From: an uncultured Candidatus Bathyarchaeia archaeon
GTDB lineage: Archaea; Thermoproteota; Bathyarchaeia; Bathyarchaeales; Bathycorpusculaceae
Length of the DNA stretch: 64,000 nucleotides
Assembly: GCA_964632845.1 (NCBI GenBank)
Contig: CAZWDU010000003.1
Coordinates: 84,686 to 148,685 of the forward strand
Direction of reading: 5' to 3'
Positions 30,550 to 37,295 of the stretch are shown here, one piece after another. Position numbers and translations under genes: made by a program. The notes beneath the pieces are model-generated. The model was not told the DNA's origin. It searched no databases and worked only from the letters and a program-made list of their open reading frames with translations. Every line of letters begins with the position of its first letter. The stretch's first letter is position 1.

Positions 30550-31391
30550 CAGCAAGATTTTTCTGTTTGCCGTTGGGGGTTAACGGAGGGGACACGCCGA
30601 AAACCCCCAACGTTTCTAGCTACGGCAGTTGGCTGTACCTGTGAGTGGTTGTTTTGTGCACATACCCGTGAGCTTTAACGTTGCTTGCGCTTGAAGGTTG
30701 CGCGTGATTCGGTTTACAGTTGGATAATCCATCCATGTATATAAGGTTTTTGCGTATATACAATAGTGACTATATTGTTGAACATATGTCCATAGAATTT
30801 CTGTGCTGAATTTTGGCGTGGGTTAACGTTGCATAGAGCTTTGCCAAAAAAAGAGGCATTGTAAAAAAAGGAGGTTGAGGGAAAGAGTCAGTTTTCGGGA
30901 TGTTGCTTTAGAAAAACGTTGAGAGCAAAGCGCTCATTGGTATCCCCGTAAGCGTGAAATGCTGCTGAACAGCCTCTCTTTACAGCAATGAGTTTTTGTG
31001 ATTTTCGAGGCTTTGAGATACTGGGACTTTGGCTCTTTCCCTCACTATAATAATAGGCAAAAAATTATATAAGTTTATAGTTTCTTCCCGGAACCTATGC
31101 TATGATTTGTTTGTTGCGTTTTAAGAGACTCTATCGCTTTTTTTGCAGCGTCATTGCAGCCGAGAGTACCAATGCTTTAAGTGGTTTTGTTAGTGAGTCT
31201 TGAATGTGAAAGTGAAGCAGTGATTCTTGTTTAGTGGTTAAGTTTTATGCGCAGAATAGTTAGGTCATGTGCCGATAAAACAACGTAGCACCATGCGCAC
31301 ACAATCATCTAAGACACACCGCACAATTTCGCGAACGCAAAACCGTAAACTCTATATTTCTTAATGAAACCTCTTTTTCAATAGTCTCAGC

Positions 31392-31580: not shown

Positions 31581-32348
31581 ATGAAACAGGTACTTATAAC
31601 GCCCGTTGCGGGAAAACGTTTAATCGCCAAAGCACTCGCAACGCACAGCACAGTTCTAAACGCGTTGAAGTCTGGAACAGTTGTTATCCTCGCAGGTACC
31701 ACAAACGGTTACGTAGCCGAAGAAATCTTCAAGGCAATAGACATTCCGAATGATTTTTCTCGGAAGCATTTTTTCCGCGGCATTATCGTGCCGCCTGGCA
31801 GAAAAGTAACTTCTGAAGGACGTGTGGCTGATGAAAGTAAGTTTCCCGGTGACGTGATAATAACGAAGGGCACATGGCGAAAAGGCGAAACAATATCGGA
31901 TGTAGTTGATGAGCTTAAAGAAGGCGATGTTATCCTGAAAGGCGCGAACGCGTTAGATTTACAAAGAAAGCAGGCAGCCATTCTTATCGGGCATTCTAAA
32001 GCGGGAACAATAGCCGTATCTCTGCAGGCTGTTATGGGACGTCGTGTCCGCCTAATCATGCCCGTTGGGCTAGAGAAACGTGTATGCAGCGATTTGTATG
32101 CGCTGGCGGCGAGAGTGAACGCGCCTGGCGCGAAAGGCTACCGGCTGTTTCCTGTTCCAGGTCAAGTATTCACCGAGATTGATGCTATAAACCTCTTAAC
32201 TGGTGCCACTGCGGAGTTGGTTGCAGCTGGCGGTTTTTGCGGCGCTGAAGGCAGTTGCCTGCTTGCTGTTAGTGGTACAGAAGAGCAGGAGGAAGCTGCT
32301 GAGAAGCTTGTGGCGACTGTTGCGTCAGAACCCGCATTTGATTTCTAA
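31581..32348 (+). CDS. conserved-looking uncharacterised soluble protein (255 aa)
   Basis: Clean ORF with alternating beta/alpha character. I cannot name a family. Confidence 0.55.
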
Positions 32349-32435
32349 GGGCAATAGGTGCGTGGGTGTTGAAGTTGGGTGCCGCTTGCGTCTTGGTGTG
32401 TGTTTTCTGGGTGTTGTGAGGAGCGCAAAAAAAGG

Positions 32436-32469
32436 ATAGTGTTACTGAACGTGCAAACAGTAACACTAT
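32436..32469. promoter_or_regulatory. perfect 12-bp-arm palindrome ATAGTGTTACTG-N10-CAGTAACACTAT; candidate operator (or terminator)
   Basis: Read directly from the sequence. It lies 88 nt after the upstream stop and 168 nt before the nikR ATG. The half-site GTAACACTA recurs at 33523 and 33544. Confidence 0.5.
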
Positions 32470-32636
32470 ACTGCAGATACGCAGCGCTCACCTAAAAAGC
32501 TTGCGGTTCAATTTTCAATTGTCAACATCGACTACAAAATAATCCACAACGCATAGACACTGCTGTAGTTGCAGTCGTTCGCGCTATCAGTGAAAAAGCT
32601 TTTAGGCAAACCCGTTACATTCTAACGTGGATTCCA

Positions 32637-33047
32637 ATGACTAAAATAACACGCGTAGGCGTAACATTCCCCCCAGAACTCCTCAATGACTTCGACGAAA
32701 TAATCGGCAAAATGGGTTATGAAAGCCGCTCTAAAGCCATCCAAGACGCAGTCAGGCTTTTCGTTTCAGAAAAAAAATGGCTCCGACAAGGAGAAAACAC
32801 TAATCAAACGGGCATCATACTGATGGTTTATGACCACGACGCCAGAGGCTTAGAAACCAACCTGACCGATGCACAGCACCACCATTCCACATTGATATTC
32901 TCAACGTTACACATTCACATCAGCGAACGCGACTGCCTTGAAGCGATAGCGGTGAAAGGCAAAGCCTCAGAAATCCGAAGGCTAAGCGATGAACTTGCAA
33001 CGAAGAAAGGCGTCAAAATTCTCAAAACAGTAATCGCAACAGTCTAA
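32637..33047 (+). CDS. nikR: nickel-responsive regulator NikR
   Basis: RHH N-terminus 'RVGVTFPPELLNDFDEII...YESRSKAIQDAVR' and a C-terminal metal-binding domain with 'HHH...HIH...C'. Confidence 0.8.
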   Translation: MTKITRVGVTFPPELLNDFDEIIGKMGYESRSKAIQDAVRLFVSEKKWLRQGENTNQTGIILMVYDHDARGLETNLTDAQHHHSTLIFSTLHIHISERDCLEAIAVKGKASEIRRLSDELATKKGVKILKTVIATV

Positions 33048-33127
33048 CTCATCCAATAGTACGCTTAATAGTGAAAAACGAGAAAAATGGCGGATTTAAG
33101 CCGCCTTTAATTGTGCAATTTTTTCGG

Positions 33128-33505
33128 TTACTTCCGTGTTGTCATTGGTTTGCTGAGTGGACTTAGCTGGTCTGTGACTGCAAGTTTTCTTGTCATCAGT
33201 GTGGATACTGCAAGCAGGCCCATCCAAGAAAGGGATATAGCTAAAGTCATTGAGCCGCCGATGCTGGCGATCTCAGACAGCATCACTGCTGTGTCTGCAG
33301 GTGAAGACATGGCAGTTAGGTATGGTGCCCACGCAGTTATTTCGCCGTGAAAGACGTGTTCGGCAGCGAGTATAACTACTCCGCCCCATAGCATTGAATT
33401 CAGCACGCTTAGTTTTAGTTTGTGTGTGAGGTCGCTGTGTCTGGTTAGTAGTTGTATGATTGTTGTTACTATTGCAAGTGCCATTGGTGCTAGGAAACAT
33501 GCCAT
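33128..33505 (-). CDS. small 3-4 TM membrane protein (125 aa)
   Basis: Hydrophobic, with 'MLWGGVVILAAEHVFHGEI'. It is a paralogue-like partner of 33583..33882. Confidence 0.55.
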   Translation of the reverse strand: MACFLAPMALAIVTTIIQLLTRHSDLTHKLKLSVLNSMLWGGVVILAAEHVFHGEITAWAPYLTAMSSPADTAVMLSEIASIGGSMTLAISLSWMGLLAVSTLMTRKLAVTDQLSPLSKPMTTRK

Positions 33506-33522
33506 TTCATTTTTGCCTCCAA

Positions 33523-33553
33523 GGTAACACTAAATTTAAATATGGTAACACTA
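33523..33553. promoter_or_regulatory. direct repeat GGTAACACTA-N11-GGTAACACTA bracketing the AT-rich box AATTTAAATAT in a divergent promoter
   Basis: Read directly. The repeats start 21 bp apart. Two further GTAACGG copies lie at 33564 and 33573. Confidence 0.5.
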
Positions 33554-33582
33554 GCTAATAAGCGTAACGGAGGTAACGGGAT

Positions 33583-33882
33583 ATGTGGCTGATAATATTT
33601 GCATTCGCTGCGACAATCTCTACTGCAATATGGTATACTCAAGCTGAGAACGACAAATACCTGTTAAAGTTTCTTAGCGCAATATTCTGGGGTACAACAA
33701 TAATGGTGCTTGTTGACCACGTGGTGCCCTTCATAATGGAAGGCGGCGGAGAATTCTTTGAAGTGTCAGCTGAAGCAACGGTTCTCAGCGGCATTATGCT
33801 TGTTGTGGGGCTCGCAGTGTGGGAGGGCGCGCTGTTATTTAAGGACCCTAAAGGCGTGATATTTAAAAGAAAACGTGCATAA
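33583..33882 (+). CDS. small 3-TM membrane protein (99 aa)
   Basis: 'AIFWGTTIMVLVDHVVPFIMEG' parallels the motif in the divergent neighbour. Confidence 0.55.
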   Translation: MWLIIFAFAATISTAIWYTQAENDKYLLKFLSAIFWGTTIMVLVDHVVPFIMEGGGEFFEVSAEATVLSGIMLVVGLAVWEGALLFKDPKGVIFKRKRA

Positions 33883-34081
33883 CGCGTCCGCACTCAACGC
33901 AACCTCAAATCATTTTTTTCTCCCTTTTTCTTGCACCCTGCCGCTACAGTTAACCCTGTTTTTTGCTGATTTGGCAGTTGTTTCAGCGAAATATGTGCAT
34001 GGACAGAATAGGCGTTGCGTGTGTAAAGCTTAAATAAGCAAGTAATACTATTTCTTAAAATCGTATTACTGTGGTGCTGAC

Positions 34082-34321
34082 ATGACTGAAAACAACATGT
34101 GGTTCGAAGGCACACAACTAAAAGAAAGAGAACTGACAAAAATCTTCGAAAACATCAAAGACGAACTTGCTCTAATAACTGCAAGCGTAAAATTCAATTT
34201 CACAACACGAAAAACCAGCGAAAAAGACCTCAAAGTTGTACTCGCATACATCGACGACACCACAAAACTTGTCGACCTGCTGAAGTCCCGCTTAAGCCTT
34301 TTGTCTGAAGCCACAAGCTAA
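34082..34321 (+). CDS. hypothetical helical protein (79 aa)
   Basis: The ORF has plausible composition, but antisense ORFs overlap it. Confidence 0.35.
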   Translation: MTENNMWFEGTQLKERELTKIFENIKDELALITASVKFNFTTRKTSEKDLKVVLAYIDDTTKLVDLLKSRLSLLSEATS

Positions 34322-34338
34322 AAAAACACACGACAAAT

Positions 34339-35127
34339 TCATGACGTTTTTCTGAATTTGGCAACGCGATTGGCAATTAGCGTAGCCATCGCACCTGCCG
34401 CTACGCCACCGTCAATGTTAACAACAGCCAAGCCTAACGAGCATGACTGCAACATAGCCATAAGCGTGCCCAAGCCTTTCTCTCCGAAACCATAACTATT
34501 CGAGGTTGGCACTGCAATTACGGGAACATCAACCATGCCTGCCACCACCGAGGCTAATGCACCTTCTCTGCCTGCAACCACTATGACAACATCAACGTCA
34601 TTAATGATTAAGTCTTTTAAGGGTTGCATGAGCCTATGAATCCCAGCTACACCTAAATCATACGCGGCAAAAACTGTGCAGCCCATCTCCTCAGCGATTA
34701 CTTTTGCTTCTTCCGCCACAGGGATATCCGATGTCCCCGCAGTTAAAAGCCCAATCTTTCCGCCACTAGCTCTAATAACAAAATCGTTCTTTTTTATGAC
34801 AACCATTTTGGCTTTACCGTAAACTTGCAACGCCGCGTCTTTCGGCGCAGCTTTTTTGATTGCGTGCATCTGCTTCGCGTCGCATCTGCTTACTATAACC
34901 CTGCCTTTCTCCGCCAGCATCCGAAGCGATATGCCTACAAGGTCAACTGTTGATTTCCCCTCAGCGAGAACTATTTCAGGTATGCCCTTCCTGCACTCGC
35001 GGTTAGCGTCAATTCTCGCCATGTTCCCCACTTCCGCCACCGCCAGCGGCTTCACTAACTTTTCCGCTTCAGCAACCGTTATCTCGTTTTTCGCAAGCTT
35101 CTCAAGAATTTCATTCAAACTGTACAT
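34339..35127 (-). CDS. larB: nickel-pincer cofactor biosynthesis protein LarB (PurE-like carboxylase/hydrolase)
   Basis: 'GLLTAGTSDIPVAEEAKVIAEEMG' and 'VVAGREGALASVVAGMVDVPVIAVPTS'. Confidence 0.85.
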   Translation of the reverse strand: MYSLNEILEKLAKNEITVAEAEKLVKPLAVAEVGNMARIDANRECRKGIPEIVLAEGKSTVDLVGISLRMLAEKGRVIVSRCDAKQMHAIKKAAPKDAALQVYGKAKMVVIKKNDFVIRASGGKIGLLTAGTSDIPVAEEAKVIAEEMGCTVFAAYDLGVAGIHRLMQPLKDLIINDVDVVIVVAGREGALASVVAGMVDVPVIAVPTSNSYGFGEKGLGTLMAMLQSCSLGLAVVNIDGGVAAGAMATLIANRVAKFRKTS

Positions 35128-35208
35128 GTGTCGCTTCACTTTCTGAGAGACCACAAGCAATATATCATTTATGCTTGCTCTTTCATATCAACTTATCACG
35201 TGGGAATA

Positions 35209-36459
35209 ATGTCAGAAATCAATAAAATGCTTATCATTGACTGCCAAATAGCTGGAATTGCCGGCGACATGTTCCTAGGCGCGTTAATAGATATAGGCGC
35301 CGATGTCAACAAGGTTGTTTCCGCTATAAAATCTCTGGAAAAACCTGTTTACGGCTACAAAAACGTCAAAATCGACATTCAACAAGTTCTACGGAAAGAG
35401 TTCAAAGCCACTAAAATCGACGTCACAGCTGAAAGCACCTCCAGAAAAAACGGCAGTGAACTCGTAGAAATCGTTGAAGAAAACGCAAAGAACCTGAAGC
35501 TTTCCAGTAAAGCACAGCAGTTCGCCTCAAACACCATTCGCACCTTAGTGTATTCCGAGATGAAACTTCACAACAAATCTTCATCTAATGTTCACCTTCA
35601 TGAAGTAAGCCTTGTGGACACCCCAGCAGAAATCATCGGTGCTGCCGTTGCCATGGAAGACCTTGGGCTATTCTATGCCAAAATATATGCAACGCCTGCT
35701 TCGGTTGGCGGTGGCTTATTCAAGTTTTCACACGGCGCAGTATCCAGCCCTGCACCTGCAACTTTGGAGATTTTTAGGTCAAAGAATTTTCCGATAAAAG
35801 GCGGACCTGCCGAGTCAGAGCTGACTACGCCAACAGGAGCAGCCATTCTAGTTAACTTGACAAGTGAAGTAAGCCGTTTTTATCCTGAAATGACCCCGCT
35901 AAAGGCAGGCTACGGCGCAGGAAACAAGGATTTCGAGGAAATGCCAAATGTCCTGCGTCTTACAATAGGCGAGCCCTTAGAAAACTGGTTGCTAAAAGAT
36001 GAAATCGCAATTCTAGAAACAAACGTTGACGACGTAACAGGAGAAATCATCGGCAATACACTGGGCAAACTGCTACGCGAAGGCGCCAAAGACGTAAGCA
36101 TCATCCCCATGTTTACAAAAAAGAACCGCCCCGGCCAAATTCTCAAAATAGTAGCCGACCGAAAAGACGTCAAACATCTTTCGCGAATAATTCTCGAAGA
36201 AACAGGCACGCTTGGCGTCAGAGTGTACCCATGCGAGAGGCACATCATCAATCGTGAAGTAATCTCCGTAGACGTGCTCATCGACAACGTGAAAGCTCGC
36301 GTAAAAGTTAAAATCGCCAAAGACAAACACGGCAAAATCATCCGCACCAAGCCTGAATACGAAGACGCTAAACGCTTAGCGGATAAAACAGGCAAACCCC
36401 TAAGAGAAATCAACGACATAATCATCACAAAAGCCAAAACGGTTTTCTCGAAAAGGTAA
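35209..36459 (+). CDS. larC: nickel insertion protein LarC (DUF111 family)
   Basis: 'MLIIDCQIAGIAGDMFLGALIDIGAD' is the hallmark N-terminus. Confidence 0.85.
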   Translation: MSEINKMLIIDCQIAGIAGDMFLGALIDIGADVNKVVSAIKSLEKPVYGYKNVKIDIQQVLRKEFKATKIDVTAESTSRKNGSELVEIVEENAKNLKLSSKAQQFASNTIRTLVYSEMKLHNKSSSNVHLHEVSLVDTPAEIIGAAVAMEDLGLFYAKIYATPASVGGGLFKFSHGAVSSPAPATLEIFRSKNFPIKGGPAESELTTPTGAAILVNLTSEVSRFYPEMTPLKAGYGAGNKDFEEMPNVLRLTIGEPLENWLLKDEIAILETNVDDVTGEIIGNTLGKLLREGAKDVSIIPMFTKKNRPGQILKIVADRKDVKHLSRIILEETGTLGVRVYPCERHIINREVISVDVLIDNVKARVKVKIAKDKHGKIIRTKPEYEDAKRLADKTGKPLREINDIIITKAKTVFSKR

Positions 36460-36464
36460 ACAGC

Positions 36465-37295
36465 ATGAAAACCCTCACCGAGAAATACGAAACGCTGAAG
36501 CGCTTCATCAAAGACACAGGCAAAGACGGTGTAGTAATTGCTTTTTCCGGCGGCGTAGACAGCGTAACCTTAGCTGCGGTCAGCCACAGAGTTTTAGGCG
36601 ACAGGGCAGTTGCTGTCACGGCTGAATCTCCAACGTACACGCCTGAAGAGCTGGAAGAAGCAAAAAAAGCCGCCGTGGAAATCGGCGTCAAGTTAATCGT
36701 TGTGGAAACAGACGAGTTGTCAGATGAAAATTTCAGCAGGAACCCTGAAAACCGATGCTACTACTGCAAAAAAGCGTTGCTGGCACGCTTGAAAAAAGTT
36801 GCAGAGGAACTGGGGTTTAAAACTGTTTTTGAGGGCACAAACTTCAGCGATTTAACCATGCACAGACCTGGCTTCCAAGCGGTTAAGGAAGCTGAAAACG
36901 TGTACAGCCCGTGGGTTGAAGCAGAATTCACCAAAGAGGAAATTCGCGCAGTAGCCAAGAAGTTGGGTTTATCTGTTCATGGCAAGCCGCCTTTGGCGTG
37001 TTTAGCTTCAAGAATACCTTACCATGAAAGAATTACAGCTGAGAAGTTGAATCGTATCTGCAAAGCAGAGCAAATAATAAGGAAAATAGCGGGCGTTAGA
37101 CAACTTCGAGTCAGAGACCATAACGGCTTAGCACGAATAGAAATCGGAAAAGATGAGCGAGTGCTTCTTTGCGACATTGAGGTTCTGGATAGAATAGCTG
37201 GCGAGTTGAAACGGCTTGGCTTCAAATATGTGACAGCTGACTTGGAAGGGTACCGAACGGGAAGCATGCTTCTAACACTAGACGCTAAAAAGTAA
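36465..37295 (+). CDS. larE: ATP-dependent sacrificial sulfur transferase LarE (PP-loop)
   Basis: PP-loop 'IAFSGGVDS', plus 'CYYCK'. Confidence 0.85.
   Translation: MKTLTEKYETLKRFIKDTGKDGVVIAFSGGVDSVTLAAVSHRVLGDRAVAVTAESPTYTPEELEEAKKAAVEIGVKLIVVETDELSDENFSRNPENRCYYCKKALLARLKKVAEELGFKTVFEGTNFSDLTMHRPGFQAVKEAENVYSPWVEAEFTKEEIRAVAKKLGLSVHGKPPLACLASRIPYHERITAEKLNRICKAEQIIRKIAGVRQLRVRDHNGLARIEIGKDERVLLCDIEVLDRIAGELKRLGFKYVTADLEGYRTGSMLLTLDAKK

Follow-up and report, generated by a model that had tools for sequence, protein, structure and literature searches.

Which regulator reads the GTAACAC words that recur around a nickel-responsive repressor gene in an uncultured Candidatus Bathyarchaeia archaeon, and what is the function of the two small membrane proteins encoded beside them? 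Both questions arise from a 64,000-nucleotide (nt) stretch of that genome (the window; contig CAZWDU010000003.1), which carries nikR and, next to it, two divergent genes that we call mp125 and mp99. An earlier sequence-only reading had proposed an archaeal NikR operator and a mini-regulon made up of nikR and the two membrane proteins. Our analysis supports both proposals: the GTAACAC words are probably operator half-sites recognised by the NikR tetramer whose gene lies at 32637–33047, which is the best explanation of the observations as a whole. The operator is of a published class, while its direct-repeat layout and the candidate transporter are new. We lean slightly towards a broader view, in which mp125 and mp99 represent an unrecognised two-subunit (3+3 helix) family of nickel uptake permeases, widespread in uncultured archaea and present in a few bacteria, controlled by NikR across phyla and interchangeable with NikMNQO, and in which NikR reads half-sites in any orientation provided that their centres are 21 bp apart.

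Paired half-sites of the NikR box class

The perfect inverted repeat previously noted at 32436–32469, with 12-bp arms ATAGTGTTACTG (32436–32447) and CAGTAACACTAT (32458–32469) separated by a 10-nt spacer, lies exactly at these coordinates and is far above chance expectation; a repeat search of the window extends it to 15-nt arms at 93% complementarity. Its 28-bp core (box 1; GTGTTAC 32439–32445, N14, GTAACAC 32460–32466) is identical, letter for letter, to the NikR box GTGTTAC-[N13/14]-GTAACAC, a signal predicted from the upstream regions of nik(MN)QO genes in delta-proteobacteria (Rodionov et al. 2004, Genome Biol 5:R90, PMC545781). That paper also gives the reversed (everted) half-site order, for D. 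psychrophila and D. vulgaris.

Two copies of GGTAACACTA start at 33523 and 33544, 21 bp apart, and bracket AAATTTAAATAT in the 77-nt gap between the open reading frames of mp125 (33128–33505, minus strand) and mp99 (33583–33882, plus strand), as had been described. In terms of heptamers they form box 2, a direct repeat of GTAACAC (33524–33530 and 33545–33551) with TAAATTTAAATATG as its N14 spacer. Box 3, on the plus strand, pairs GTAATAC (34042–34048) with GTATTAC (34063–34069) across N14, with C/T and G/A transitions relative to the consensus heptamers, and stands upstream of a third gene, orf79. The three boxes of the window are thus inverted at nikR, direct around a TATA box at mp125/mp99 and everted, the published variant, at orf79, and half-site symmetry appears to be no strict requirement in this lineage.

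The signal does not reside in the single word. The window contains four copies of the exact 9-mer GTAACACTA, clustered in 1.1 kb (Poisson P ∼3e-10); the 2.09-Mb genome contains 17, about the random expectation, the other 13 copies being scattered singletons. Because the genome-wide frequency is random, what carries information is the clustering and, above all, the pairing at N14: the word alone shows no promoter specificity, whereas the pair at fixed spacing is promoter-specific. An interpretation of the copies as a repeat element was rejected for the same reason. When the 267 genomic copies of the degenerate half-site GTAAYAC were paired at spacers of 0 to 60, spacer 14 yielded five pairs against 0.034 expected, and all other spacers combined yielded six. 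All five strict N14 pairs are intergenic and directly upstream of genes, so the objection that the motif might be scattered without promoter bias applies to the single word only. Relaxed scans of the whole genome (≤2 mismatches in total) remained at background level with no N14 peak, and the strict set alone was retained; weak pairs near an RbkR-like gene on contig C21 are probably due to chance.

The sequence-only reading had identified the two right regions, at nikR and at mp125/mp99, but its inventory was incomplete, having missed box 3 and two boxes on other contigs. One of these, at C4:25151, lies just 3′ of a TATA-like element and 32 nt ahead of an operon of Peripla_BP_2, FecCD, ATP-binding cassette (ABC) ATPase and methyltransferase genes. 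The other, at C7:66512, has a weaker second box 9 nt beyond it and is flanked by a divergent ABC ATPase gene on one side and by a Peripla_BP_2/methyltransferase/FecCD operon on the other.

The nikR gene and its upstream box

The plus-strand nikR gene (32637–33047) encodes a 136-residue nickel-responsive ribbon-helix-helix (RHH) repressor with matches to Pfam NikR_C (5e-26) and RHH_1, and to NCBIfam NikR models above cut-off. Its closest relative in the PDB is P. horikoshii NikR (2BJ1, E 6e-28), and the nickel ligands H...HxH-x5-C align with it, the pattern QH...HxH-x5-C being kept. The protein therefore combines the features that define the NikR class, namely an RHH domain at the N-terminus, NikR_C at the C-terminus and the His3Cys set of nickel ligands.

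Box 1 is found 170 nt ahead of nikR, with a conserved A7 tract (32427–32433) just before it, and its position there probably reflects autoregulation. Between box and gene, on the plus strand, are two conserved, putative promoter elements, TAAAAAGCTT (32493–32502) and AAAAAGCTTTTAGG (32593–32606), the latter matching the ATAAAAGCTTTATGG element found after the NikR box in other genera. The arrangement is shared by the window genome (G000) and two sister species, with the box 166–170 nt from the nikR ATG, the A7 tract before it and two AAAAGCTT elements after it. Across three species of the genus a 45-nt block that includes the spacer is nearly invariant and the flanks diverge; judged from this pattern, box 1 is evidently under constraint.

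Footprinting in related genomes, as had been suggested, showed boxes kept upstream of nikR and of the mp125/mp99 pair. A GTAACAC-type N14 pair precedes nikR in ∼20 of 29 orthologous loci, everted in 11, inverted in four and direct in five, with unchanged spacing. In most genera this box ends 8–12 nt ahead of the conserved ATAAAAGCTTTATGG, ∼50 nt from the ATG. The CCCGTTAC copy ahead of the nikR ATG, also counted earlier as part of the motif, is present, but it is not conserved in relatives and falls outside the operator.

The ATAAAAGCTTTATGG/AAAAAGCTTTTAGG element is itself palindromic and promoter-like, is conserved ∼30 nt ahead of nikR in many Bathyarchaeia, and appears to have been duplicated in G000 and the sister species G001 and G002, with ∼100 nt inserted between the copies.

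A divergent membrane-gene pair behind a direct-repeat box

The two genes flanking box 2 encode a 125-residue (mp125) and a 99-residue (mp99) membrane protein of three helices each, the former belonging to an unnamed family and being a candidate nickel-permease subunit. The two are distant paralogues (hhalign E 9e-4 over 72 columns) with a common LWG...(D/E)H layout. Their shared control region (33516–33573) comprises the Shine–Dalgarno (SD) sequence of mp125 (cctcc, 33516–33520), box 2, a TATA-like element CTAATAAGC (33555–33563) and the SD sequence of mp99 (GGAGG, 33569–33573). The further GTAACGG copies reported at 33564 and 33573 exist, but they overlap the GGAGG of mp99, are not conserved as GTAAC in relatives and fall outside the operator.

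The direct box GTAACAC-N14-GTAACAC, pointing to mp99 and with a TATA-like spacer, is found in all 12 genomes of the order in which the divergent pair is intact, although protein identity to the mp125 and mp99 of the window is just 44–76% in these genomes. A species-level scan (one genome per prokaryotic species) returned 369 loci encoding mp125 relatives, the best 80 of which provide the locus counts that follow. mp99 is the immediate neighbour of mp125 wherever flanks are present (77 of 80 loci); the two genes diverge in Thermoproteota, whereas Thermoplasmatota, Archaeoglobaceae, Altiarchaeales and a few bacteria have them in tandem. A box is present in the control region of the pair in 54 of the 80 loci, spanning several archaeal phyla, and site density is 6.1 per kb in this region versus 0.024 per kb in the remainder of the same loci. 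Among divergent loci, 35 of 44 across phyla have the layout of box 2, 33 of these 35 with a direct repeat; the aligned intergenic order runs from the mp125 start through its SD sequence, a half-site, TAAATTTAAATATA, the second half-site, a second TATA-like element (T/A)ATAAGC and GGAGG to the mp99 start. Boxes at divergent loci are N14 direct repeats, whereas those at tandem loci are for the most part N13 and everted. The divergent gene next to many of the tandem pairs is nikR, and in Thermoplasmatota, where N13 everted boxes are present, it is often the immediate neighbour. With boxes conserved upstream of both nikR and the pair in dozens of genomes, the proposed mini-regulon of nikR and the two membrane proteins is supported at the level of comparative genomics.

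Several features of the proteins would fit a metal-handling complex. Alignments of mp125 show invariant residues including E49, H50, H53 and E55, which form the motif E49-H50-x2-H53-x-E55 where helix 2 ends, and an N-terminus in which Met-Ala-Cys is near-invariant (M1, C3, F4, P7 and M8 are nearly invariant). Structural models of mp125 from AlphaFold2 have low to moderate predicted local distance difference test (pLDDT) scores of 68 and 73, the latter with three helices; with such a topology the E/H/C residues would all face one side of the membrane, where they could make up a metal site. A Foldseek search with the mp125 model found no meaningful match in the PDB. The tandem mp125 and mp99 genes are tightly coupled; an in-frame mp99–mp125 fusion was sought in the tandem loci and none was found there. 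Among the 50% representatives, one 233-residue protein (P0148) comprises a complete mp125-like portion fused to the final two helices of an mp99-like portion; this may be a natural fusion in support of a complex, or else an artefact of gene calling. Both tight coupling and fusion fit an mp125–mp99 complex.

The family is large, forming 3,760 clusters when grouped at 90% identity and 388 when grouped at 50%, and ranges over Bathyarchaeia, Methanomethylicia, Caldarchaeales, Desulfurococcaceae, Thermoplasmatota, Archaeoglobaceae, Altiarchaeales and a few bacteria. Neither protein gave a family match in Pfam or NCBIfam, even when 25 members were searched with E values as high as 5, and neither matches the profiles of CbiM/NikM, NiCoT or HupE/UreJ. 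Members listed are labelled ‘hypothetical protein’, apart from two stray Joint Genome Institute (JGI) labels, and almost all come from metagenome-assembled genomes; in a search for a cultured carrier, the top 120 relatives of an Archaeoglobaceae member were all metagenomic.

In situ replacement of NikMNQO

The window genome, 95% complete, encodes LarA and four [NiFe]-hydrogenase large subunits, and a search of it for CbiM/NikM, NiCoT and HupE/UreJ found none. It has a single NikA-type binding protein (SBP_bac_5), with no NikR box upstream. In the sister species G001 the gene order is nikR, nikM, a PDGLE-type small subunit, nikQ, nikO, larB, larC and larE, with a box GTAACAC-N14-GTATTAa after the nikM TATA box; nikMNQO thus occupies exactly the slot held by mp125, mp99 and orf79 in the window genome. 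This in situ replacement is the strongest argument for a role of the pair in nickel uptake. In the genus, the pair and CbiM/NikM exclude each other: G000 and G003 have the pair without CbiM, and G001, G002 and G004 have CbiM without the pair. In a sample of 151 genomes of the order, CbiM is present in 1 of 15 pair-positive genomes versus 46 of the 136 others.

We consider nickel transport by the pair reasonably probable on these genomic grounds, its most likely form being a hetero-oligomeric nickel permease of mp125 and mp99 that stands in for NikMNQO.

Other targets and neighbouring genes

The gene behind box 3, orf79 (34082–34321, plus strand), encodes a 79-residue soluble protein with neither His nor Cys and with no assigned family. 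A TATA-like TTAAATAA (34030–34037, plus strand) stands ahead of the box, which ends 12 nt before the orf79 ATG. Homologues in all six loci of other genomes have an N14 box 10–15 nt before the ATG, making orf79 a third conserved target of the NikR box, confined to close Bathyarchaeia relatives.

The two boxed ABC operons may encode importers of nickel or of a nickel chelate. The C4 box is kept in the sole close orthologue found for the C4 binding protein, so that its conservation relies on one comparison. Both boxed Peripla_BP_2/FecCD operons (L031 4211–7853, from C4; L032 4689–9036, from C7) enclose a gene for an S-adenosylmethionine-dependent methyltransferase, and the binding protein encoded on C7 contains a long linker rich in Thr and Pro as well as a weakly dockerin-like segment.

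Downstream of orf79 lie the genes for nickel-pincer cofactor synthesis larB (34339–35160, minus strand), larC (35128–36459, plus strand) and larE (36465–37295, plus strand), which form the syntenic frame of the locus (34339–37295) shared with the sister species. No NikR box was found between larB and larC, whose longest open reading frames overlap head to head by 33 nt (35128–35160); the true starts are probably internal. Directly 5′ of box 1, a 255-residue protein (31581–32348, plus strand) has no match in Pfam or NCBIfam. Further upstream an imperfect 16-nt inverted repeat, CGTTGGGGGTTAACGG/CCGAAAACCCCCAACG (30571–30612), opens a gene-free stretch after an alpha/beta hydrolase gene and is probably a terminator-like hairpin.

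Discussion

Taken together, an archaeal NikR operator is indicated by a core that equals the published consensus, by the adjoining canonical nikR, by the restriction of N14 pairs to promoters and by the conservation of sites at orthologous loci. Half-site sequence and spacing are those of the published class, the sites are conserved at orthologous promoters, and these promoters are those of nikR or of known or putative nickel-uptake genes (nikR itself, nikM(N)QO in G001 and the two ABC importer operons). The predicted regulon in G000 would include nikR (probably), mp125/mp99, orf79 and the FecCD-type ABC importer operons on C4 and C7.

We propose that the operator consists of two 7-bp GTAAYAC half-sites with centres 21 bp, or two helical turns, apart in a 28-bp site, and that each half-site would receive one RHH dimer of nickel-bound NikR, so that the archaeal pre-initiation complex would be blocked. 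GTAAYAC is a near-palindrome of the form GT-nnn-AC, in which flipping changes the three central bases alone and leaves the centre in place. The centres are always 21 bp apart, and we infer that either orientation of a half-site can accommodate its symmetric RHH dimer. Archaeal TATA boxes lie ∼26 nt upstream of the transcription start. From this distance, the TATA box in the spacer of box 2 would serve mp99 and the second TATA box mp125, and one tetramer would cover or abut both. Owing to the TATA box within the spacer, a single tetramer could silence both divergent genes. At orf79 and at the C4 ABC operon the box covers the expected start of transcription, just 3′ of the TATA box. Placement over a TATA box or start is the geometry of a repressor, so expression should drop when nickel is plentiful, as for uptake genes; repression by this NikR rather than activation, together with the transcription start positions, is deduced from this layout.

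Compared with the delta-proteobacterial boxes (PMC545781), the half-site sequence and the 13/14-bp spacer are the same, as is the location ahead of nickel-uptake genes. However, the host here is archaeal, the sites overlap TATA/B recognition element (BRE) promoters instead of sigma-70 promoters, and the targets include an unnamed membrane-protein pair, a 79-residue protein and FecCD-type ABC systems. One target here has a strictly conserved direct-repeat form, whereas the excerpted portion of PMC545781 mentions no direct repeat. The operator of the E. coli nikABCDE operon (GTATGA-N16-TCATAC; structure 2HZV; reviewed in PMC7055735 and PMC11672702) has the same 28-bp span with two widely spaced half-sites, bound by a tetramer with two RHH dimers that acts as a nickel-dependent repressor of nickel import. 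It differs in half-site sequence, in having a single target, in a half-site that is not a near-palindrome and in being known in the inverted orientation alone.

The pair resembles the energy-coupling factor (ECF)-type NikMNQO/CbiMNQO systems in its slot between nikR and larB, as seen in G001, and in the kind of NikR box that precedes it. In NikM/CbiM the N-terminus helps to bind the metal, and the near-invariant Met-Ala-Cys N-terminus of mp125 recalls this. The pair nevertheless has no sequence or profile similarity to these systems and neither an ATPase nor a T component, consisting of two proteins of ∼100–125 residues with three helices each. NiCoT (HoxN/NixA) and HupE/UreJ are likewise small-to-medium polytopic proteins whose His/Asp motifs lie within or close to transmembrane helices, and some of these proteins are under NikR control; the pair matches neither Pfam model, and has 3+3 helices in two polypeptides versus eight or six in one.

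Several observations weigh against the proposed operators and their link to nickel uptake. Box 1 is 170 nt from nikR compared with ∼50 nt elsewhere, and its spacer is not TATA-like, which makes its assignment to a particular promoter tentative. The nikR box of most relatives precedes a BRE/TATA-like element, a placement compatible with activation too. The genome encodes a second NikR paralogue, so the choice of the NikR in the window as the binder draws only on its autoregulatory position. The two NikR-boxed ABC importers could supply nickel without mp125/mp99; the moderately confident model of mp125 has no structural relatives in the PDB; and, as related genomes are not independent, the complementary distribution of the pair and CbiM is only suggestive.

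The alternative that survives best accepts the sites as NikR operators and the pair as NikR-regulated, and takes mp125/mp99 as something other than an importer: a component that substitutes under low nickel, an anchor for a sensor or chaperone, or an exporter activated by NikR. It would be consistent with the coexistence of the two boxed ABC importers in the same genome, with the ability of H. pylori NikR to activate genes as well and with the presence of both CbiM and the pair in one genome (G156). It is unlikely, however, given the repressor geometry of a box over the TATA box, the in situ replacement of nikMNQO and mutual exclusion with CbiM in the genus, and a conserved E/H/C cluster that fits a metal site.

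Binding of the GTAAYAC-N14 sites by another regulator, either the second NikR paralogue or an unrelated factor, with the proximity of nikR incidental, seems far less credible. The paralogue (34% identity; contig C2:60217–60594, minus strand, outside the window) does provide a candidate. It is, however, divergent from a ZnuA/ABC/ABC-3 (znuABC-type) operon, and the AT-rich repeat GTTAATAAATTTTATTAAATTATTTTTGTTAAC in that intergenic region differs from the GTAACAC boxes, on which account we assign these boxes to the NikR of the window. The znuABC neighbourhood echoes the suggestion, made for Methanothermobacter, that such NikR homologues may sense zinc (PMC3087415). Moreover, the sites match a consensus derived independently from bacterial nik operons (PMC545781), and they stand upstream of nikR orthologues in ∼20 genomes and of nikM in G001.

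Transcription termination in archaea depends on oligo-T tracts. That the palindrome is solely a hairpin or terminator of the gene at 31581–32348, with the other copies due to chance, can practically be set aside: it lies 88 nt 3′ of that gene's stop and its 12-bp arms could fold in RNA, but no oligo-T tract follows it, the same heptamers recur at N14 at four other promoters, in direct and everted forms that allow no hairpin, the nikR box of relatives is mostly everted or direct, and the half-sites are conserved as sequence.

The operator reading stands as the preferred one, and we judge the finding to be real and mostly explained by known biology; the pair matches none of the known nickel transporter families, yet behaves in genomes like one of them. 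Nickel is required by hydrogenases, CO dehydrogenase, the Lar nickel-pincer cofactor and methyl-CoM reductase. A survey in 2009 recognised just three families of nickel/cobalt transporters in archaea (PMC2667541), two of which (CbiM/NikM and NiCoT) are absent from this genome. The pair is therefore a concrete candidate for the missing nickel importer, and it occurs in lineages that are dominant in anoxic sediments and lack cultured models. In addition, the natural set of inverted, everted and direct operators at fixed spacing is relevant to DNA recognition by the NikR tetramer, and to the way in which a single repressor may shut two overlapping archaeal promoters.

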